Below, one piece after another: positions 21,381 to 58,118 of a DNA stretch of 64,000 nucleotides (positions within the stretch are counted from its first letter, which is position 1; each line of letters begins with the position of its first letter). A program made the position numbers and the translations under genes. The stretch comes from Gammaproteobacteria bacterium (GTDB lineage Bacteria; Pseudomonadota; Gammaproteobacteria; UBA4575). The notes under the pieces are model-generated. The model did not search any database, was not told the origin of the DNA, and saw only the letters and a program-made list of their open reading frames with translations. The stretch lies in the NCBI GenBank assembly GCA_965243395.1, contig CBDEUS010000002.1, positions 978,293 to 1,042,292 of the forward strand, written 5' to 3'.

Positions 21381-21416
21381 TCTCAGGCCTTGAAATAGCT
21401 AGGGTTGCCCCCATCT
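21381..21416 (+). promoter_or_regulatory. Sigma-32 (RpoH) heat-shock promoter of clpB.
   Basis: TCTCaggCCTTGAAA, then 13 nt, then CCCCATCT. This is a near-consensus match to TCTCNCCCTTGAA-N13-15-CCCCATNT. It lies 35 bp upstream of the clpB ATG. Confidence 0.8.
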
Positions 21417-21450: not shown

Positions 21451-24030
21451 ATGCGCATGGATAAATTAACCACTAATTTCCAGCTTGCTTTGCAAGAGGC
21501 GCAGTCTATGGCAGTCGGGCAGGATCACCAATTCATTGAGCCTGTTCATTTATTGTTGGCAATGCTGAATCAAGACAACAGTGTGGTGGCATCTCTTTAT
21601 TTAAGTGCGGGTGCAGATGTAAATGCAATAAAACAGAAATCACAGGAAATAGTAAATCGTTTGCCTCATGTTTCCGGTACTGCCGGTGAAGTGCATATAT
21701 CGAATAACCTTAGTAATCTATTAAATGTAACCGACAAACTTGCACAACAAAGTGGTGACGATTATATCGCTTCCGAAATGTTTGCGGTTGCAGCGATTGA
21801 AGACAAGGGTGAGCTTGGAAGTTTATTAAAACAGTCAGGTTTAAATAAGCAGCAATTAATATCTGCGCTTGAAAAAATGCGAGCAGGAGAAAGCGTGAAC
21901 GATCCTAATGCAGAAGAAACACGACATGCGCTTGATAAATACACGATTGATTTAACCGAGCGAGCAGAACAGGGCAAGCTTGATCCAGTTATTGGTCGTG
22001 ATGATGAAATTCGCCGTGCGGTTCAAGTTTTACAACGTCGTACTAAAAATAATCCAGTACTAATTGGTGAGCCAGGTGTGGGTAAAACGGCCATTGTAGA
22101 AGGTTTGGCTCTGCGCATCGTGAATGGTGAAGTTCCTGAAGGGATTAAAAACAAAAAACTATTATCACTTGATTTAAGTGCACTCATTGCGGGGGCAAAA
22201 TTTCGTGGTGAATTTGAAGAAAGACTTAAAGCAGTATTGAAAGAACTTTCTAAGCAGGAAGGGCAGATCATATTATTTATTGATGAGTTACACACCATGG
22301 TAGGCGCAGGCAAAGCTGAAGGGGCTATGGACGCAGGCAATATGTTGAAACCAGCATTAGCACGAGGGGAGTTACATTGTTTGGGTGCAACTACTTTAGA
22401 TGAATATCGACAGTATATTGAAAAAGACGCTGCGCTTGAGCGACGTTTCCAAAAAATAATTGTTGATGAACCCAGTGTTGAAGACACCATCGCAATTTTG
22501 CGTGGTTTAAAAGAACGTTATGAAGTGCATCATGGTGTAGATATCACCGATCCGGCGATTGTCAGTGCGGCCACACTCTCTCATCGTTACATTTCAGATC
22601 GACAGTTGCCGGATAAAGCTATTGACTTGATTGATGAGGCTGCTTCACGCATTCGTATGGAAATCGATTCCAAACCGGAATCAATGGATAAACTGGATCG
22701 TAAACTTATTCAACTAAAAATTGAGCGTGAGGCATTAAAGAAAGAATCTGATGATGCATCCAAGAAACATTTGGATGAACTTGAAGCCGAAATTCAAAAG
22801 CTTGAAAAAGAATATGCAGATCTAGAAGAAATTTGGCGCGCAGAAAAAAATACCTTGCAAGGTTCGCAGGAAGTGAAAGAAGCGCTTGAGCAAGCGCGCA
22901 TAGACTTAGATGCTGCACATCGTGCAGGAGATCTAGCCAAGATGTCGGAATTGCAATATGGAAAGATTCCTGAATTAGAAAAGCAATTACAGTCAGCCAG
23001 CGAAGTAAAGAGTGGTGATAATAAATTACTTCGAAATAAAGTTACGGATGCGGAAGTGGCTGAAATTGTTTCGCATTGGACAGGTATTCCAGTATCTAAG
23101 ATGTTGGCGGGTGAGCGTGAAAAATTATTGGAGATGGAATCTGTACTTCGTAAGCGAGTCGTTGGTCAAGATGAAGCGGTGCAAGTCGTTTCAGATGCGG
23201 TGCGCAGATCCCGTGCAGGTATATCTGATCCCAGGCGGCCCAATGGTTCTTTCTTATTTCTTGGGCCAACAGGTGTAGGTAAAACAGAACTGACCAAAGC
23301 TTTAACCGAATTTTTATTTGATAGTGAAGATGCGCTTATTCGTGTAGATATGTCTGAGTTTATGGAAAAACATTCGGTAGCACGTTTAATAGGTGCGCCT
23401 CCGGGTTATGTGGGTTATGAAGAGGGTGGATATTTAACTGAAGCGGTAAGACGTAAGCCGTATAGTGTTGTATTACTGGATGAAATTGAAAAAGCACACC
23501 CGGATGTTTTTAATATTTTATTACAAGTCTTAGATGATGGTCGCCTAACAGATGGTCATGGTAGAACAGTTGATTTTAAAAATACTGTCGTCATCATGAC
23601 GTCTAATTTAGGGAGTGATGTCATACAAGAGCTTTCATCGGATGCGCAGTATGAAGAAATGAAAGCAGCCGTTATGGAAGTGGTTGCAGCACGTTTCAGG
23701 CCCGAATTTATTAATCGCATTGATGATGCGATTGTGTTTCATCCGCTTGCACAAGAGCATATACGTGCCATTACTGAAATCCAGTTAGAGCACTTGCAAA
23801 AGAGACTTAGTGATCGTGATATCAGATTGTCATTTTCAGATATAGCTTTAGAAAAATTATCTAAAGCTGGATTTGATCCAGTCTATGGTGCAAGACCCCT
23901 AAAGCGTTCAATACAAGAACTCGTCGAGAACCCATTAGCCCAAAAGTTGTTATCAGGTGATATAAAAACGGGCGCAGAGGTGAGCGTTGATGTAAAAAGT
24001 GATCAATTAGAATTTGTTTCGAAATCTTAG
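21451..24030 (+). CDS. clpB: Chaperone disaggregase ClpB.
   Basis: 859 aa. [14 protein letters not shown] is like E. coli MRLDRLT. There are two AAA+ modules with a coiled-coil M domain. Confidence 0.95.
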
Positions 24031-40920: not shown

Positions 40921-41769
40921 TCATTTGCGAATATTCACACGTTTAGGTAATTCGTCGAACTCAATCTGCTCTTCACCATTGTAGACAAGAAAGGCTTTGC
41001 CTTTTGCGCGGGCGATCATAACGATGCCTAAGTCTCGTGCCAGTTCTAAGCCCATATTCGTAACACCGGATCGTGAAAGTAAAACGGGGATGCCCATGTT
41101 GGCAGATTTCATCACCATTTCTGAAGTTAAACGTCCAGTGGTGTAAAAAATTTTGTCATCGCCTTGCTGGTGTTCCAGCCACATCCAACCTGAAATGGCA
41201 TCTGCAGCATTATGTCGACCCACATCTTCAACGAATTTTAAAATTTCAGTGTCTTTGCATAAGGCACAACCATGTACCGCACCGGCTTTTTTATAAATAT
41301 CATTAAATTTGGTGATTGCAGCCAGTAATTCATAAATTTTAGATTGTTTTAGTGAAACCTTTGGAAGTTTTTCATCATAAAGCTTATCTAATGTGCAACT
41401 GAATACAGTACCTTGTCCACAACCAGAAGTTACCGTGCGTTTACTGAGCTTTTCTTCCCAATCAGTAATTTCTTTTTCAGGCATCAGATTTACATCAACA
41501 CGTTCTTTGTTCCAATCCACACTTACCGATTCAATATCTGTAATGTTTTCTAGCAAGCGTTGATTACGTAAATAACCCAGTGCCAATTCTTCAGGGTGTG
41601 TGCCGAGCGTCATTAAAGTAACAATTTCTCGATCGTTCACTTTCAAAGTTAATGGTGATTCTCCGGCTACATGCACTTCTTTATTTTCACCAAATTGATT
41701 TATGGCATTTACTGCATGTGTGGGCGATAAGCCCTGTTGTGAAAGTTTGGGTCGATAGACTTTATCCAT
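40921..41769 (-). CDS. fdhD: Formate dehydrogenase accessory sulfurtransferase FdhD.
   Basis: 282 aa with FdhD/NarQ-family features including the conserved Cys region SGCGQGT. Confidence 0.8.
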   Translation of the reverse strand: MDKVYRPKLSQQGLSPTHAVNAINQFGENKEVHVAGESPLTLKVNDREIVTLMTLGTHPEELALGYLRNQRLLENITDIESVSVDWNKERVDVNLMPEKEITDWEEKLSKRTVTSGCGQGTVFSCTLDKLYDEKLPKVSLKQSKIYELLAAITKFNDIYKKAGAVHGCALCKDTEILKFVEDVGRHNAADAISGWMWLEHQQGDDKIFYTTGRLTSEMVMKSANMGIPVLLSRSGVTNMGLELARDLGIVMIARAKGKAFLVYNGEEQIEFDELPKRVNIRK

Positions 41770-45544: not shown

Positions 45545-46312
45545 ATGAATATACGTGTCCTTGGCTGTAGTGGGGGTATTGGTTCGGGTCATAGAACCAC
45601 TTCTTTACTGTTAGATGATTCTGTACTGATTGATTGTGGTACAGGTCTTGGCGATCTATCGCTTGATGAAATGTTAAAGATACAGCATGTATTCATTACT
45701 CATTGTCATTTAGATCACATCGCTCTCCTCCCTATGTTATTGGATACTTCATACGATCACTTGGTCAATCACCCACTAACTTTGCACTGTAAACAAGAGA
45801 CCTACGAAATATTGGCAAAACACATTTTTAATTGGGATGTATGGCCAAACTTTTTTGAATTACCCAGTGCTGAGACACCAGTGATTATTTATGAATCTAT
45901 GCAGCCTGGAGACTGTATTGAATTTGGTGACAAGATTGTAAAAATGGTCGAAGTAAACCATTCCGTTCCAGCAGCTGCTTATGTAATTAATAATGGCACT
46001 GGCACGATTGCTTTTACGGGCGACACTTTTACCAATGACACTTTTTGGCAGTCTTTAAATGAAGAGCCGAACATGGATATCGTGATTGTAGAATGTGGTT
46101 TTACCAATGAAGAAGAAAATATAGGGCGAGATGCGAAACATTACTATCCTAAGGCATTAGCTGAGGATCTGAAAAAATTGAAGCACCGGCCAGATCTCTA
46201 TATCACGCATTTACAACCAGGTAGGGAAGAACGGATCATAGAACAACTCAATTCATCCATAACAGAATTTAACATTCATCAACTTTCCAGCGGCCAAATA
46301 ATTTCGATCTAA
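45545..46312 (+). CDS. Class II 3',5'-cyclic-nucleotide phosphodiesterase (CpdP-like, MBL fold).
   Basis: Signature HCHLDHIALLP, matching the class II PDE pattern HxHLDH. Confidence 0.75.
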   Translation: MNIRVLGCSGGIGSGHRTTSLLLDDSVLIDCGTGLGDLSLDEMLKIQHVFITHCHLDHIALLPMLLDTSYDHLVNHPLTLHCKQETYEILAKHIFNWDVWPNFFELPSAETPVIIYESMQPGDCIEFGDKIVKMVEVNHSVPAAAYVINNGTGTIAFTGDTFTNDTFWQSLNEEPNMDIVIVECGFTNEEENIGRDAKHYYPKALAEDLKKLKHRPDLYITHLQPGREERIIEQLNSSITEFNIHQLSSGQIISI

Positions 46313-51341: not shown

Positions 51342-53258
51342 ATGAGTACGAAGACAGATAAAAATAATAAAAAAGATGATGCTAAGGAAACTTTGCAGTT
51401 TGAAACAGAAGTAGCACAACTTCTACATCTAATGATTCATTCTCTTTATTCGAATAAAGAGATATTTTTGCGAGAGTTAATTTCAAACGCTTCTGATGCT
51501 TGTGACAAATTACGCTTTGAGGCGATATCAGACGATTCATTGCTAAGTGATGATTCGGATTTAAAGATTCAAGTAGAGTTTGATAAAGATGATAGAACGG
51601 TAACCATTCGTGACAATGGTGTCGGCATGAGCCGTGACGAAGTCGTCAATAATATCGGCACGATTGCAAAATCAGGAACCAAAGAATTTTTATCGCAACT
51701 CACGGGCGATCAAAGCAAAGACTCACATTTAATTGGTCAGTTCGGTGTCGGGTTTTATTCTGCTTTTATTGTCGCCGATAAGGTCACGCTAAAAACACTT
51801 CGTGCCGGGCTTGAAAAAGATCAAGCCGTTCAATGGGAATCTGAAGGCACAGGTTCATACACTTTGGAAAATATTGAAAAAACAAAGCGTGGCACGGAAG
51901 TGACATTACATCTCAAAAAGGATGAAGATGATTTGTTAACGAGTTGGCGATTACGTTCTATTATTACCAAATACTCGGATCATGTGCCTTTGCCCATTGA
52001 AATGCGCGAGGAAAATGATAAAGGTGAGGTCACTGCAAAATGGGAAACCATTAATAAAGCTTCTGCCTTATGGGCACGACCTAAAACAGAAATTTCAGAA
52101 GACGAATATAAAGAGTTTTATAAACACGTAGGACATGATTTCGTTGATCCATTGCTATGGACGCATAACCGAGTTGAAGGTAAAACAGAATATACATCGC
52201 TTTTGTACATTCCTTCTCAAGCCCCGTTTGATTTATTTGATCAAAATCCAAAACATGGTGTAAAGCTCTATGTACAACGTGTCTTTATCATGGATGATGC
52301 GGAAAAATTATTACCAAGATATTTGCGTTTTGTTCGCGGTGTAATCGATTCGAATGATTTACCACTCAATATTTCGCGGGAAATTCTGCAAAGCAATAAA
52401 GTCATCGACAACATCCGCTCGGGTTCGGTTAAAAAAGTATTAGGTCTTTTAGAAAAGCTTTCAAAAAATGAAACCGATAAATATCAAGAATTTTGGAATG
52501 TGTTTGGCAAGGTCTTAAAAGAAGGTCCTGGTGAGGACTTTGCCAACAAAGAAAAAATTGCCAAGTTAATGCGCTTTGCCTCAACACACCAGGAAAGCGA
52601 CGTACAAAACGTTTCGCTGGATGATTACATAGCACGTATGAAGCCAGAGCAAGAAAAAATTTATTACATCACTGCAGATAACTATGCAGCGGCAAAAAAC
52701 AGTCCCCACCTGGAAATATTTAAAGATAAAGGTATTGAAGTTTTATTGTTATTTGATCGAGTAGATGAATGGCTCATGAGTCATTTAACCGAGTATGAAG
52801 AAAAATCTTTTGCTTCGGTGGCAAAAGGCGAGCTTGATCTAGATAAATTAGGCACTGAAGAAGATAAAGAGAAGCGTAAACAAGCGGAAAAAGATGCCGA
52901 GGGATTAGTTAAACGTATTAAAGATGTCCTAGAGGATAAAGTTGAAGATGTTCGAGTTTCTCATCGATTAACTAATTCTCCGGCATGCATCGTTCTAAGT
53001 GAGCATGATATGGCGTTGTATATGCAACACCTTATGAAACAAGCCGGGCATGAAATGCCATCCACTAAACCTGTTTTAGAAATTAATCCAACCCATGCTC
53101 TAGTAGAAAGAATGGAAAATGAGCAAGCAGAAGATCGTTTTGAAGATTGGGCTAAAATTTTGTTTGATCAGGCGATACTCGCAGAAGGTGGGCAGCTTGA
53201 AGATCCTGCAACATTTGTGAATAGATTGAATCAAATGATTAATGAGCTCGCCCAATAA
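51342..53258 (+). CDS. htpG: Chaperone HtpG (Hsp90).
   Basis: [27 protein letters not shown] is almost identical to the E. coli HtpG N-terminus. Confidence 0.95.
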
Positions 53259-53700
53259 AAATATAAAAGATAAAAAAGCATTCTGGCAAACCAAAACCCT
53301 TAAGGAGATGTCCAAAAAAGAATGGGAATCTCTCTGCGATGGTTGTGGAAAGTGCTGCTTAATTAAACTGGAAGATGCAGAGACCAAAGAACTCTTTTAT
53401 ACAGACGTTGCATGCCATCTTCTGGACCACGACACATGTCAATGTAAAGATTACTCCAATCGAAAAAAGTTGGTTGAGGACTGCTTGCAGTTAGAAGCGG
53501 ATGATGTTGAAGATTTTAAATGGTTACCAGAAAGCTGCGCTTATCGTTTATTGTATGAAGGCAAAGAACTACCTGACTGGCATTATTTAATTTCGGGTGA
53601 TAAGCAAACAATCCATAGACAGAAAATGTCTGTGCAAAATCGTATTGTGAGTGAAACAGAAGTGATGGAAGTAGCCGAACATATAGTGTACTGGGTTTAG
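53242..53700 (+). CDS. UPF0260 protein YcgN-like (Cys-rich).
   Basis: [13 protein letters not shown] motif. Confidence 0.7.
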
Positions 53701-54364: not shown

Positions 54365-54421
54365 GGTAGAAATAGCTAAAATTTGAATCGCTGTATTATA
54401 CGTAAGAGTTTAAGATATCCC

Positions 54422-54814
54422 ATGTCAGAATCGCAAAAAATTCGTATAGATAAATGGCTTTGGGCCGCACGCTTTTTCAAAACACGTGCACTGGCATCAA
54501 AAGCTGTGGATGGAGGAAAGGTGCATGTAAATGGCCAACGTGTGAAGTCTTCGCGACCTATTCAAGTGGGAAATCGTATAGAAATCACACGTGCACAAAC
54601 GCATTTCGTGATTGAGGTTGTTGCTCTCAGTGAAAAACGAGGTCCAGCAAAAAAAGCTCAACTTTTATATAACGAAACTCAAGATAGTATCGAGCAAAGA
54701 GAACATCAGTCACAGCAAAGAAAAATCATGAATGCCAGTTTACCTAGATCGCAAGGCAAGCCGGACAAGCATCAACGCCGCCAGATTCGCAAAGCGAGTG
54801 GCAAGTCAAATTAG
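54422..54814 (+). CDS. hslR: Heat shock protein 15 (ribosome-associated, S4 domain).
   Basis: IRIDKWLWAARFFKTRALA is like E. coli Hsp15 (RLDKWLWAARFYKTRALA). The start is taken at the internal Met. Confidence 0.85.
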   Translation: MSESQKIRIDKWLWAARFFKTRALASKAVDGGKVHVNGQRVKSSRPIQVGNRIEITRAQTHFVIEVVALSEKRGPAKKAQLLYNETQDSIEQREHQSQQRKIMNASLPRSQGKPDKHQRRQIRKASGKSN

Positions 54815-54863: not shown

Positions 54864-55673
54864 TTATTGATTAATTTTGAATGAGATGACAGATTTAGAA
54901 TCGTTATCTACAGGTTTGCCCATGCTCATGACTCCACTGGTAATAAGAGTCTGTTCGTTTTTTGAGACATGAATTTTTTGACCGTTATCAAATTTAATGT
55001 AAGTTCCATTGAAACTATTATCGGCTAAAAAGAATTTACCTTCTTTAAATGTAATTTTGGCATGTGCGCGTGATACAAATTTGCCTTGCACGACAATATC
55101 ACAGCTTGGATCACGGCCCACTTGGCAACTTTCTTTTTCGCCTGTGACGACATGTTTCTTGCCTTTTAATGAAAGCTCGATTGATGCTTCTGCTTCATTT
55201 GCATCAATTGAAGGATCTGGTTCAGGTAGTTCATCTTGAGACGGAATATGAATTTCTGCAGATTCATCCATTTCTGCAATGTCTTCAATTTTGTTATTTG
55301 AAACAGCTTCTATATTAGTAGCATCCAAAATTTCATCTTCTAGATCTTTAATAGAAGATACTATATTGGATGAGGCAGGTTCATCGTCTTTAAGGGCTTC
55401 TTCCAGTTCCCGTGCCCTAGTATCACTTATGTCAATGGATGTGTTGTTTGGTTGTTGTTTTTTCTCGGCAGCAACAGGAGTAGAAGCTGAACTTTCTTCT
55501 TGAGCTTCTTCCTCTTCTACTACATGACGCCGGTCGACTTTTCTACGGCGACTTTTAGTCACCAATACTCCATCACTATCAATGAATGGATAGGTGACTT
55601 TACGGCCCCAGCGGCGGCGTTCATTTTTTCTGCGTTCTTTCATGAAATGGGAGAATATACGTATCAACCCCAA
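54864..55673 (-). CDS. FHA-domain protein with an Arg-rich N-terminal motif and an acidic linker.
   Basis: The C-terminal FHA is GRDPSCDIVVQG...SRAHAKI...NGTYI. The N-terminus is ERRKNERRR...YPFIDSDGVLV...RRRKVDRR. Confidence 0.7.
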   Translation of the reverse strand: MGLIRIFSHFMKERRKNERRRWGRKVTYPFIDSDGVLVTKSRRRKVDRRHVVEEEEAQEESSASTPVAAEKKQQPNNTSIDISDTRARELEEALKDDEPASSNIVSSIKDLEDEILDATNIEAVSNNKIEDIAEMDESAEIHIPSQDELPEPDPSIDANEAEASIELSLKGKKHVVTGEKESCQVGRDPSCDIVVQGKFVSRAHAKITFKEGKFFLADNSFNGTYIKFDNGQKIHVSKNEQTLITSGVMSMGKPVDNDSKSVISFKINQ

Positions 55674-55796
55674 AGTATGCGGAAATAGCTAACACTTTGA
55701 ATAGCTTAAGACTATTCTACAGCCAGGTGGTAGAAACCGGCCGATTAATGTATCCAGAAACCTGCTTGTTTTGGCTGCGTGTAATGGCCAGAGTGA

Positions 55797-56312
55797 CTAT
55801 GGACAGAAGTAGTGGATTACGTCTTTCTCTACGTATTCGATTGGGGTGCCAAGGCTAATAATGCCACTGCCATGTAGTTCCATTTTTTCACCCATCAGGA
55901 ACATTTCGCCTTCATCGTTTTTAATATAGGTGCCATTGGTGCTGTGGTCTGTGATATGAAATACACCGTTTTCGAAACTAAATCGTGCATGTTGTCGTGA
56001 TGTGTAACGATTTTGAATTTTTACAGTGCAAGTTTGTGCACGTCCCACAATGACTTCATCAGTATCAGGAAATAATTCACAAACTTCATCTTTATGCCAC
56101 AAGAATAGCCGTGTTGCCTCTGTATCTGCGGTGTCAACATCAGATTTAGCATCGTTCTGAATTTCGATGTTATTGATTCTTCGATCAGGAATTCTTCGAC
56201 GGTCTTCACGAACTAATGTTTGGTCACTATCGAAAAATGGAAATGGGGGGCTGTCGCTGGATTTGCGACGATCTTCAAGAGTTCTTCTTTCGTTAATGAA
56301 TTCCGTGCCCAT
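55797..56312 (-). CDS. FHA-domain protein, a paralog of the upstream gene with the same N-terminal Arg-rich motif.
   Basis: The C-terminal FHA is GRAQTCTVKIQNRYTSRQHARF...NGTYI. The N-terminus is ERRTLEDRRK...FPFFDSDQTLV...DRRRIPDRR. Confidence 0.7.
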   Translation of the reverse strand: MGTEFINERRTLEDRRKSSDSPPFPFFDSDQTLVREDRRRIPDRRINNIEIQNDAKSDVDTADTEATRLFLWHKDEVCELFPDTDEVIVGRAQTCTVKIQNRYTSRQHARFSFENGVFHITDHSTNGTYIKNDEGEMFLMGEKMELHGSGIISLGTPIEYVEKDVIHYFCP

Positions 56313-56391
56313 ATTTAATTGAAGTAAAGTAACTATTTACTCACGTAATTAATTAGTGAGTGCTTAGGTAACACCGCTACAGAATGTTACG

Positions 56392-56559
56392 TTATGTAAT
56401 GATCAGTAAAGACTGAGTCAGTTGTGGTGCCCAGATTTTAAACATGGCATATCCATAAGTAGCAAGACCTAAAAATAACCATATTGCGAGTAAAAATATT
56501 GGAGAAACTTGTTGCTCCTCGAAGCTGGGAGTACTTGCGTTTTCTACAAGTTGTGTCAT
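56392..56559 (-). CDS. Possible 55-aa single-pass membrane peptide upstream of the FHA pair.
   Basis: MTQLVENASTPSFEEQQVSPIFLLAIWLFLGLATYGYAMFKIW..., with a GAGGT ribosome-binding site 7 nt upstream. It is below the ORF-track size cutoff. Confidence 0.3.
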   Translation of the reverse strand: MTQLVENASTPSFEEQQVSPIFLLAIWLFLGLATYGYAMFKIWAPQLTQSLLIIT

Positions 56560-56804
56560 TTACATACCTCAAAGACTAGATGTTTGTACTCTAGATGCAA
56601 ATTTTATCATGATGCTTGTTAAGTTGATATGAAGCTTTTGAAGTTTTTATTGTTTTCAATTGTGAAGTTTTTTGTGTAATTTAGTTGTCGAGTAGCGAAT
56701 AAATAAACGTCAAAAATTTAGGGTAATAAGCAAAGATTTTAGATTTAGATGTTATGATAACTTAAAGAAAATATTGAATATTTGTATACGAATTATTTCT
56801 TACT

Positions 56805-58118
56805 ATGAAGAAAGATTTAGATTCTAAGCTAGCTGATTTGCATCTTTCTTGCTTGACAGAGCAATCAATTGACTCCAGTCAGATATGTGACGGTGCCTTG
56901 AAAATTATTTCTCAGCTGCATGCAGCAGGGTTTCAAGCCTATATTGTGGGCGGTGGAGTAAGGGATTTATTGCTGGATTTGCACCCCAAAGATTTTGATA
57001 TTGCCACCAATGCCACCCCCGAAGATGTGCGTCGTTTATTTGATAACAGCCGAATAATCGGCAGGCGTTTTCGTATAGTTCACGTCTATTTTGAAGGTGG
57101 TTTTGTTGAAGTTTCAACGTTTCGTGCAGCAAGTAGAGCCAGTACAAACAAAGAGGGGCGTATTATTGCGGACAATACATTTGGCAGTATTGAAGAAGAT
57201 GCGTTTCGTCGTGACTTTACGGTTAATGCATTATTTTATGATTCAGAAAATGATCAAATTTTAGATTTAGTTAATGGTATTCAAGACGTAAACGCTAAAT
57301 TATTACGTGTCATTGGCGATCCTGATTTACGTTTTCGTGAAGATCCAGTACGTATGTTGCGTGCCATCAGATTAGCAACCAAGCTTAATTTTGAAATTGA
57401 AGAGAGTGCTAAAGATGCAATTATTCGTTTGGGTTGTTTGCTATCCGAAGTACCCTCGGCACGTTTGTTTGATGAAATGATTAAACTATTTCATGGAGGC
57501 CATGCTTTAGAAACTTATAAGGGTTTACGTGAGTATGATTTATTTCGTCATATGTTTCCTCTGACTCAGCAAGTGCTCGAGGAAGAGACAGCTAGTGAGT
57601 CATTTACATTTACGAATTTGGTTCGAATCGCGCTGGAGAATACAGATGAACGTATTCTTACTGGAAAATCGGTTACACCTGCATTTCTGTACGCAGTATT
57701 TTTATGGGGGCCTATGCGTAAACTAAGCAAACAGCTGGAGCTGGATGGTTTGTCACCACGGGTCGCTCATGATGCTGCTGCAAAAGATACTATTCTTTCG
57801 CAATTACCTTATACATCAATTCCAAAACGCTTTTCTTTTTCGATGCGTGATATTTGGAATTTGCAATATCGTTTTTATCGCCGAAGGGGTAAGCAAGTAT
57901 ATAAGTTGTTTGAGCATGATCGGTTTCGTGCGGCCTACGATTTTTTATGCTTACGAGCAAGCGCTGGAGAACCGGTAGATGAACTTTGCGAATGGTGGAC
58001 GGTTTTTCAAGAAGTGGATGACGCTACACGGCGAAAGATGTTGCGTGCTTCAAAAGAGACTAAAAAATCTAAAGCAAAAATGAAGTCGGGCCGCTATAAA
58101 AACAAAACCTATCATTAG
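56805..58118 (+). CDS. pcnB: Poly(A) polymerase I.
   Basis: Nucleotidyltransferase motif GGGVRDLLL...DFD. The pcnB-folK pair is conserved. Confidence 0.9.
   Translation: MKKDLDSKLADLHLSCLTEQSIDSSQICDGALKIISQLHAAGFQAYIVGGGVRDLLLDLHPKDFDIATNATPEDVRRLFDNSRIIGRRFRIVHVYFEGGFVEVSTFRAASRASTNKEGRIIADNTFGSIEEDAFRRDFTVNALFYDSENDQILDLVNGIQDVNAKLLRVIGDPDLRFREDPVRMLRAIRLATKLNFEIEESAKDAIIRLGCLLSEVPSARLFDEMIKLFHGGHALETYKGLREYDLFRHMFPLTQQVLEEETASESFTFTNLVRIALENTDERILTGKSVTPAFLYAVFLWGPMRKLSKQLELDGLSPRVAHDAAAKDTILSQLPYTSIPKRFSFSMRDIWNLQYRFYRRRGKQVYKLFEHDRFRAAYDFLCLRASAGEPVDELCEWWTVFQEVDDATRRKMLRASKETKKSKAKMKSGRYKNKTYH

Follow-up and report, generated by a model that had tools for sequence, protein, structure and literature searches.

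A three-gene locus for a membrane peptide and two FHA proteins

We analysed a stretch of 64,000 nucleotides from a Gammaproteobacteria bacterium (assembly GCA_965243395.1, contig CBDEUS010000002.1, positions 978,293 to 1,042,292), referred to here in its full length as the window. The subject is a trio of reverse-strand genes encoding a 55-amino-acid (aa) membrane peptide (pep55) and two paralogous forkhead-associated (FHA) proteins (FHA_S and FHA_L). The two proteins share an N-terminal arginine-rich module, denoted the RR-box, which we find to be a widespread autonomous mini-domain and which we tentatively read, by analogy, as a guanine-nucleotide-binding element. The genes and their parts are as follows.

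56392..56559, (-): pep55, 55-aa peptide with a hydrophobic span at residues 19-41 and a nearly invariant C-terminal half, WLFLGLATYGYAMFKIWAPQLTQSLLIIT (from the listing of open reading frames, ORFs)
55797..56312, (-): FHA_S gene, 171 aa, with an RR-box module, a short acidic linker and an FHA domain (ORF, Pfam)
56160..56291, (-): RR-box of FHA_S ('S-type'), residues 8-51, ERR-x3-DRR-x8-FPFFDSDQTLV-x2-DRR-x2-PDRR-INNIEI
55800..56114, (-): FHA domain of FHA_S, residues 67-171, with phosphothreonine (pThr)-binding residues R91, S105, R106, H108, N126, G127 and T128
54864..55643, (-): FHA_L gene, 259 aa, with an RR-box module, a long acidic linker with helix-like conserved blocks and an FHA domain
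55524..55643, (-): RR-box of FHA_L ('L-type'), residues 1-40, ERR-x2-ERR-RWGRKVT-YPFIDSDGVLV-TKS-RRR-KV-DRR
55182..55523, (-): acidic linker of FHA_L, residues 41-154, net charge -27
54867..55181, (-): FHA domain of FHA_L, residues 155-259, GR...SRAHA...NGTYIK

The three-part layout and the paralogy had been proposed in a first-pass annotation made from the letters alone, and both stand. The FHA domains of FHA_S and FHA_L are 38% identical (BLASTP, E 2e-18), and the N-termini also align when the pair alone is compared (E 0.002). Searches returned 69 FHA_S homologues of the same architecture (P0001-P0069) and 77 homologues of FHA_L. We place the start of FHA_L at the ATG at 55643 (MKERRK...) because a protein of identical sequence (P0084, 259 aa, carried on a 1.3-Mb contig) and all homologues begin with MKERRK; the TTG at 55673, the upstream start in the mechanical ORF list, is unsupported.

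The peptide gene is real. Its product has one hydrophobic span, the Shine-Dalgarno sequence GAGG lies 7 nt before its ATG, and substitutions among 15 orthologues are distributed over the three codon positions as 125:68:368; pep55 therefore evolves as coding sequence. The peptide has no match among the Pfam, NCBIfam, PADLOC or PHROG models.

FHA domains and linkers

Both FHA domains score above the Pfam gathering cut-off for FHA (PF00498, 20.7 bits), with 55.7 bits for FHA_L (E 6.8e-15) and 49.3 bits for FHA_S (E 7e-13). Counted over 60 FHA_S and 67 FHA_L homologues, R91, S105, R106, N126, G127 and T128 of FHA_S are invariant and H108 is retained in at least 90%, and the equivalent pThr-binding positions of FHA_L are 80-100% conserved, so that the G-R, S-R-x-H and N-G-T signatures are invariant or nearly so in orthologues. 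AlphaFold models residues 67-171 of FHA_S with a predicted local distance difference test (pLDDT) score of ~90. A Foldseek search with this domain recovers the solved FHA domains of ArnA, Rv1747, OdhI and GarA (E ~1e-7 to 1e-5, probability 1.00), and a sequence search of the PDB with the FHA part places OdhI/GarA on top (E 2e-7). Both domains are thus canonical, as first described, and are predicted from these residues to read pThr.

On profile scores, FHA_S and FHA_L fall outside the named FHA subfamilies tested (OdhI, FhaB/FipA, TagH of type VI secretion, and YscD). They reach 27 and 18 bits against the NCBIfam OdhI equivalog cut-off of 200, 37 and 35 bits against the cut-off of 120 for the type VI secretion model TagH/Fha1 (TIGR03354), and 32.1 and 20.6 bits against the cut-off of 33.2 for Yop-YscD_cpl, the model of YscD from type III secretion. 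No secretion-system genes were found near the FHA pair among the scanned neighbours, all of which are housekeeping genes.

The linkers had been called acidic and of low complexity. They are acidic, with a net charge of -5 over the 20 aa of the FHA_S linker in addition to the -27 of FHA_L, but the FHA_L linker is not purely of low complexity, as it contains the conserved blocks S69xDIS..ELEEAL, S97IKDLExEILxAT and ELPEP within an otherwise variable sequence. We regard the pair as FHA adaptors with a presumably regulatory N-terminal element, built on an uncatalogued family of mini-domains.

The RR-box module

The RR-box spans ~45 residues and consists of four [D/E]RR triads, two on either side of a short [FY]P[FL]xDxxGxLV beta-hairpin. 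An alignment of 251 instances gives the consensus [ED]-R-R-x3-[DE]-R-R-x-[WF]-x5-[FY]-P-[FL]-x-D-[S]-x-G-x-L-[VI]-x2-[DN]-R-R-x2-P-[DE]-R-R-[LI]-x-N-I-x-V. Across these instances the RR pairs are 98-100% conserved, apart from the first Arg of the first pair (76%), and the residue preceding pairs 1 to 4 is acidic in 79%, 96%, 94% (D/N/E) and 97%, respectively. P20 of the hairpin is present in 100%, and D23 and G26 in ~88%. Among FHA_S orthologues, R10, R15, R16, F27, D28, L33, R38, R39 and R44 are invariant; in FHA_L, residues 1-39 are nearly invariant across homologues while the linker varies. The module carries a net charge of +1 in FHA_S and +11 in FHA_L, and the stand-alone proteins described below average +3.6.

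Compositional bias, the explanation by which the first-pass annotation would have been overturned, is ruled out by the ortholog invariance and by a hidden Markov model (HMM) built from stand-alone proteins alone, which recovers FHA_S (E 1.7e-19) and FHA_L (E 7.6e-17) and matches nothing else in the window.

The structure predictions are of a largely extended element. Within FHA_S, AlphaFold gives the RR-box a pLDDT of <50; with 112 stand-alone sequences as input, only the short central hairpin is modelled with confidence (pLDDT 84-90), the arms are extended, and the predicted template modelling (pTM) score is 0.32. As first claimed, the module belongs to no catalogued family: it has no match in Pfam, NCBIfam, PADLOC, PHROGs or a sequence profile search of the PDB, and it is not PilZ. 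Foldseek returned no match to a solved fold, and the weak, non-significant matches that were listed are extended tails of ribosomal and RNA-polymerase proteins. In the PDB profile search an N-terminal stretch of Prp8 (e.g. 9r8v_A 97-119) resembles the first half of the RR-box in the pattern RR-x3-DRR-x-[WF]-x5-FP[FL]xD; at E ~1 we take this likeness as chance.

The RR-box family

We searched 1.84 billion representative proteins with a 46-column RR-box profile drawn from both paralogue families. The profile matches 418 clusters at E<=1e-3, of which 43 reach E<=1e-10, so the module is not a peculiarity of two paralogues, as it had first seemed. Among the best 150 of the 418 clusters, stand-alone proteins of 50-130 aa make up ~70% (106 clusters; 87 of <=80 aa and 19 of 81-130 aa). 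The remainder are 33 FHA fusions, of which three carry two modules; seven proteins with an N-terminal transmembrane helix before the module; one two-module protein without FHA; and three longer proteins. FHA is the sole recurrent globular partner in this set. The RR-box is therefore a widespread autonomous mini-domain.

A degenerate DNA pattern for PFxDxxGxxVxxDRRxxPDRR identified 51 metagenome loci, and in 51/51 the pattern is in frame within a small ORF. All named members are annotated as 'hypothetical protein' and come from metagenome-assembled genomes of Gammaproteobacteria. The L-type module (NRRR..DRR, RWGRK) is common to most of the single-gene module-FHA proteins found elsewhere, and the S-type resembles the stand-alone proteins. 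In one protein (P0180) the frame is open 5' of the called start (L096 4902-5000 / L097 3333-3431) and holds an additional partial RR-box match (E ~1e-7), so that the true P0180 may extend further and contain one and a half modules.

The stand-alone genes have no conserved neighbours. At 46 non-redundant stand-alone loci, the 115 flanking ORFs represent 126 Pfam families, and no family recurs in more than three loci. No second RR-box copy was found nearby in the 51 loci, no Rfam riboswitch adjoins an RR-box gene in the 40 loci scanned, and no sigma-32 or sigma-54 promoter was found 5' of stand-alone RR-box genes. The module has no match in viral contigs or plasmids and belongs to no PADLOC or PHROG defence or phage family.

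Several RR-box genes lie close to genes for c-di-GMP (cyclic di-GMP) enzymes. A GGDEF-EAL gene is the divergent neighbour of a stand-alone RR-box gene in L030 (3455-5207) and in L031/L032 (3469-5225), a GGDEF gene is convergent with the RR-box gene in L040, and L069 and L074 each have a GGDEF gene no more than a few kb away. This adjacency is suggestive, though not clearly above expectation. In L030-L032 five small genes without Pfam matches follow, together with a CS1-type fimbrial usher (TcfC/CooC_C), and this neighbourhood could represent a c-di-GMP or adhesion context.

The module-FHA genes of other lineages are single, without an adjoining kinase (four lineages), pep55 gene or paralogue. 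At one locus (L093, GCA_947258875.1), a divergent pair occupies the same chromosomal site as the trio, with pcnB-folK-dNK (dNK, deoxynucleoside kinase) on one side and ycgN-htpG on the other. The two genes, at 3175-3669 (-) and 3974/4001-4546 (+), form a pair of P0162, a 164-aa protein with two RR-boxes and no FHA, and P0170, a 181-aa module-FHA protein. The presence of this pair at the same site indicates that paired module genes predate the present tandem and that FHA is dispensable in one partner.

Conservation of the operon and its surroundings

A genome scan for the operon yielded 29 loci (L001-L029). All belong to uncultured Gammaproteobacteria, and several carry the label Thiotrichales. 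The 29th (L029) carries a cyclase-FHA gene and stands outside the 28 true relatives, of which 27 have pep55, FHA_S and FHA_L in the same order and orientation. The pep55 gene lies directly 5' of FHA_S in L001-L028, with the exception of L027. In the distant clade (L018-L027) FHA_S is 41-51% identical and the trio is retained, pep55 being a 52-aa version and ispG taking the place of pcnB upstream. One locus (L028) has the same flanks and an intact pep55 and lacks FHA_L; its FHA_S is reduced to an N-terminal ORF of 73 aa followed by out-of-frame remains (6046-6440). Either the system has decayed in L028 or the assembly is in error.

A ~360-aa (361-aa) protein (MRRKQLIDTTYKIQQAIS...) is encoded between the trio and hslR in L018-L024 and L028, ~600-800 nt 3' of FHA_L (in L019 at 7731-8810), an insertion confined to the distant clade. 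It has no homologue in the window and is ruled out as part of the system.

The trio is flanked by hslR (Hsp15; 54383-54814, +), which is convergent, and by pcnB (56805-58118, +), which is divergent, in agreement with the position first reported. Upstream neighbours recognised by Pfam are ffh, rimM, trmD, a RadA-like ATPase gene, corC, ogt, htpG, ycgN and a glutathione S-transferase gene, and those downstream are folK, a deoxynucleoside kinase gene, panB, panC, pgi and queG. In total 24 proteins were scanned with Pfam (~38.4-64 kb of the window plus clpB and dxs), and apart from the two FHA proteins and pep55 all are housekeeping. GC content is 0.394 in the trio and 0.384 in the window as a whole, and the trio has no match in the plasmids or viral contigs searched. 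The trio is thus a core-chromosome locus, a vertically inherited three-gene operon (pep55, FHA_S, FHA_L) of an uncultured gammaproteobacterial lineage.

A regular-expression search for Hanks kinase, PP2C phosphatase and GGDEF signatures found none in the window, and phmmer searches with PknB, the L029 kinase and PstP found no kinase or phosphatase there, the PknB and PstP queries being approximate and serving as a screen only. The original statement that no Ser/Thr kinase or phosphatase gene lies in the window therefore holds under both screens. At 45545-46312 (+) a metallo-beta-lactamase-fold protein partially matches PDEase_II, the family of class II cAMP phosphodiesterases (E 6e-9), the sole hint of a nucleotide messenger in the scanned part of the window. 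The last 17 nt of htpG (51342-53258) are shared with the ycgN-like gene (CxxCxxCC, 53242-53700) on the same strand, an overlap at 53242-53258 that suggests translational coupling.

Expression signals and non-coding blocks

Four candidate signals were located within or upstream of the operon.

56601..56609, (-): extended -10 box TGATAAAAT (TGnTAAAAT in relatives), kept in 13 related loci
56567..56570, (-): Shine-Dalgarno sequence GAGG, 7 nt before the pep55 ATG (GAGG/GAGA in orthologous loci)
56339..56361, (-): inverted repeat ACTCAC-N11-GTGAGT between pep55 and FHA_S
55675..55745, (-): conserved non-coding block ATCGGCCGGTTTCTACCACCTGGC ... AAGCTATTCAAAGTGTTAGCTATTTCCGCATAC between FHA_S and FHA_L, 5' of FHA_L

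The extended -10 box is the probable promoter of the operon at the level of a consensus match; its conservation sits in a block otherwise common to the divergent pcnB promoter region. Within the operon only pep55 has a strong ribosome-binding site. FHA_S and FHA_L have no Shine-Dalgarno sequence (56313-56340 and 55644-55671, -), and FHA_L is preceded by CUCCC (CCUCC in relatives), which resembles an anti-Shine-Dalgarno sequence, with GGGG/GAGG ~27 nt before the start.

The inverted repeat is not a classic terminator, because no T-run follows it. A hairpin is retained at this position in related loci despite differing sequence and is possibly attenuating or stabilising.

The block of ~70 nt at 55675-55745 is nearly invariant in L001-L017, more so than the flanking coding sequence, and is unique in the window. 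The distant clade retains only its TATCGGC and CATACTT boxes. It is probably an internal promoter or operator, to judge from this pattern. A structured RNA is ruled out (covariation term 0, folding z-score -0.72), and the only Rfam match in the FHA_L region is one sub-threshold PYLIS_4 match within the FHA_L coding sequence, outside the block. For sigma-32, the block stays below a scan threshold that is exceeded by the clpB promoter, a perfect match to the consensus (CTTGAAA-N13-CCCCATCT, 21389-21416, +), 35 nt 5' of ORF 21451-24030, which is ClpB by its Clp_N, AAA_2 and ClpB_D2-small domains. The window contains one other match to the sigma-32 consensus, a weaker one at 41072-41099.

The RR-box as a candidate guanine-nucleotide receptor

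We tentatively favour the reading that the RR-box would be a new linear guanine-nucleotide-binding module coupled to pThr reading. The nearest precedent is the arginine-rich ARR element of the Caulobacter Cle proteins, a tandem [Y/F]xGP[D/E][R/K]R motif (PMC5677366), and the minimal peptide CSP, in which a small aromatic beta-hairpin is followed by DRR and then (R/K)RxxD, with DRR-x11-RRxxD spacing (PMC5677366, PMC7382256). The ARR/CSP element is unstructured in the apo state and folds round an intercalated c-di-GMP dimer, Asp bonding guanine N1 and Arg bonding the Hoogsteen edges (PMC7382256). Single-residue deletions in the CSP loop weaken binding.

Like these elements, the RR-box is short, linear and Arg-rich, with repeated [D/E][R/K]R, one of which is preceded by Pro (xPDRR, compared with GPDRR in CleD). 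It is predicted to form a small aromatic beta-hairpin directly before a DRR and to be largely unstructured alone, and it is a transferable, self-sufficient unit on a signalling domain. It differs in having four triads rather than two, with the hairpin between triad pairs, and it lacks the tandem Cle motif, Pro preceding one triad only. It occurs in Gammaproteobacteria, N-terminal to FHA or stand-alone, whereas the Cle ARR occurs in Alphaproteobacteria, C-terminal to a CheY receiver. The RR-box may work like the Cle ARR; we do not claim membership of that family.

Four features of the RR-box and its relatives support this reading. The conserved acidic residue before each Arg pair and the near-neutral FHA_S module fit the recognition of guanine. 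Predicted disorder with a confidently modelled hairpin only is consistent with folding on binding. Beyond the family, the FHA domains find their closest relatives in fusions of a class III nucleotide cyclase with FHA (P0070-P0082; L029), at 34-43% identity (E 1e-15 to 1e-9). RR-box genes adjoin GGDEF-EAL genes in L030-L032 and a GGDEF gene in L040. In the cyclase fusions, as here, FHA lies C-terminal to a module related to second messengers, but that N-terminal module is a catalytic cyclase of ~190 aa and not an RR-box, and the cyclase-FHA gene of L029 is directly followed by a Ser/Thr kinase gene, which is not so here.

As a mechanism, we propose that the RR-box alone would be largely unfolded and would fold round a small anionic ligand containing guanine, the likeliest candidate being c-di-GMP as an intercalated dimer, or else a cyclic dinucleotide of similar kind. 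In each triad the acidic residue (Asp/Glu) would recognise guanine by its Watson-Crick edge and the two Arg by its Hoogsteen edge, and aromatic side chains of the hairpin would stack on the bases. In the FHA fusions, binding could alter the reach of the FHA domain through release from the acidic linker, through pairing between an S-type and an L-type module, or through pep55-mediated recruitment to the membrane, so that the level of a second messenger and Ser/Thr phosphorylation would be read together. Stand-alone RR-box proteins would be ligand-dependent mini-effectors or buffers.

A more specific form is doubtful: that the RR-box is a self-sufficient linear receptor for c-di-GMP or another guanine cyclic dinucleotide, of an origin separate from PilZ, I-sites and the Cle ARR and used by environmental Gammaproteobacteria as free mini-proteins of 50-130 aa, in membrane-tethered form and as an N-terminal switch on FHA domains, with the operon integrating messenger and Ser/Thr phosphorylation at the membrane. 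The first-pass annotation had raised a likeness to PilZ. PilZ has an N-terminal RxxxR switch, and FHA_L has R5-x3-R9 followed by a conserved Asp and Gly in a beta-strand region. The RR-box, however, has neither the D/NxSxxG motif (DSDG and DSDQ do not fit) nor a beta-barrel and comprises only ~45 residues, and PilZ (PF07238) has no match among the window proteins at E<=0.1 or the stand-alone proteins at E<=1.

Several results weigh against guanine-nucleotide binding. An hhalign comparison of the RR-box profile (112 sequences) with CSP1 aligns 7 columns (iPDRRin / gPDRRrf) at a probability of 1.2%, and the RR-box profile search of the PDB did not recover entry 6SFT. The gap between the third and fourth triads is 3 residues, compared with 11 in CSP, and distant-clade FHA_L lacks the fourth triad (IDIR). 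GGDEF, EAL and PilZ genes are not clearly enriched among the 115 ORFs flanking the 46 stand-alone loci, no c-di-GMP riboswitch was found in the 40 RR-box loci scanned, and the window has no GGDEF signature. The charge of the FHA_L module followed by that of its linker (+11, then -27) is equally typical of regulated nucleic-acid binders.

This last point leads to the alternative that survives best, itself doubtful, in which the RR-box would be an arginine-rich motif that binds RNA, DNA or another polyanion and folds on binding. The stand-alone proteins would be nucleic-acid or ribosome binders, the fusions would tether a phospho-dependent partner, the FHA_L linker would act as a gating mimic, and the ~70-bp block could be the operator of the system itself. 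The 10-11 Arg in ~45 residues, the switch of charge from module to linker in FHA_L, the arms predicted to be disordered or extended, and the resemblance, weak and non-significant, to ribosomal and RNA-polymerase protein tails are as expected of such a motif. So are the solitary stand-alone genes without a conserved partner, as for global small binders, and the strongly conserved non-coding block inside the operon. Viral arginine-rich RNA-binding peptides and small bacterial Arg-rich proteins such as DUF1127 are likewise short and Arg-rich, often disordered until bound and often stand-alone. However, they show no sequence relation to the RR-box (Pfam scans including DUF1127 were negative), and the RR-box differs in its hairpin core and in the acidic residue placed directly before every Arg pair, in 79-97% of instances. 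This conserved acidic residue and the charge of +1 in FHA_S make a poor fit to a backbone-binding arginine-rich motif and fit guanine recognition; the stand-alone average of +3.6 is also unusual for motifs that bind a backbone. None of the Pfam, NCBIfam, PDB and Foldseek searches linked the RR-box to a nucleic-acid-binding family or structure already described. Both flanking genes, hslR and pcnB, have roles connected with RNA or the ribosome, but this synteny looks like an inherited position, as the distant clade has ispG upstream.

Similarly doubtful is the reading of the RR-box as an element of protein-protein contact, either a pThr tail that works as an on/off switch by docking in the FHA domain of the same protein or of its paralogue, as in GarA, OdhI and DgcB, or a hairpin that pairs S- and L-type modules or docks on an acidic partner. 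The layout invites the comparison: OdhI and GarA, actinobacterial regulators that come nearest to the FHA domain in sequence among solved structures, and DgcB combine a conserved N-terminal tail with a C-terminal canonical FHA domain in small cytoplasmic proteins, and DgcB (FHA-GGDEF), whose FHA domain recognises its own tail (PMC6733907), provides a precedent and connects FHA to c-di-GMP signalling. Thr32 (QTLV) is retained in at least 90% of FHA_S and Thr29 (LVT) is conserved in FHA_L. FHA is the sole recurrent fusion partner, a functional link by Rosetta-stone logic, and module genes are paired at the same site in two lineages, in tandem here and divergently in L093 (two-module plus module-FHA).

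The tails of OdhI and GarA, however, carry a short ETTS-type phospho-acceptor with a hydrophobic +3 residue that is bound by the protein's own FHA domain, and no such tail is found here. The corresponding contexts are T32-L-V-R in FHA_S and T29-K-S-R in FHA_L, each with Arg at pT+3, whereas self-binding tails are hydrophobic at +2/+3 in an E-x-T-S context. In place of a tail there is an arginine box of 45 residues that also exists without FHA. Across the RR-box family Thr occupies the two positions in only 10% and 29% of cases, and ~70% of the family lack an FHA domain and have no FHA gene nearby. No kinase or phosphatase gene lies in the window or beside the module-FHA genes of four other lineages. 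On the Arg at pT+3 and the poorly conserved Thr, the GarA-like phospho-tail form of this explanation is disfavoured.

Very improbable is a role as a binder of anionic lipids that, with pep55, would hold the FHA proteins at the inner membrane like FhaB/FipA, as a peripheral anchor and not a ligand sensor: the conserved membrane peptide gene in the operon of the two FHA genes, the N-terminal transmembrane helix before the module in 7/150 best clusters, the aromatic and Arg residues of the module (W/F13, F/Y19, F/L21) and a best NCBIfam match to FhaB/FipA, weak and sub-threshold, speak for it, but every triad contains an acidic residue, the FHA_S module is near neutral, most family members have no membrane partner nearby in the survey of flanking ORFs, and the module-FHA genes of other lineages have no pep55 gene.

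Implications for the RR-box family

We consider it reasonable to infer, with the first-pass annotation, that the operon is a small signalling module. Whatever its ligand, the RR-box defines a large family under strong conservation, with no entry in the searched copies of Pfam, NCBIfam and the PDB. If the RR-box does bind a nucleotide messenger, it would be only the second short, portable peptide receptor for c-di-GMP that folds on binding, and the first such receptor fused to a pThr reader, with direct cross-talk between two major currencies of bacterial signalling. It would provide new, minimal peptide scaffolds on which sensors or sequestering tools could be built, and it would give a function to several hundred clusters of small 'hypothetical' proteins in marine and sediment Gammaproteobacteria.

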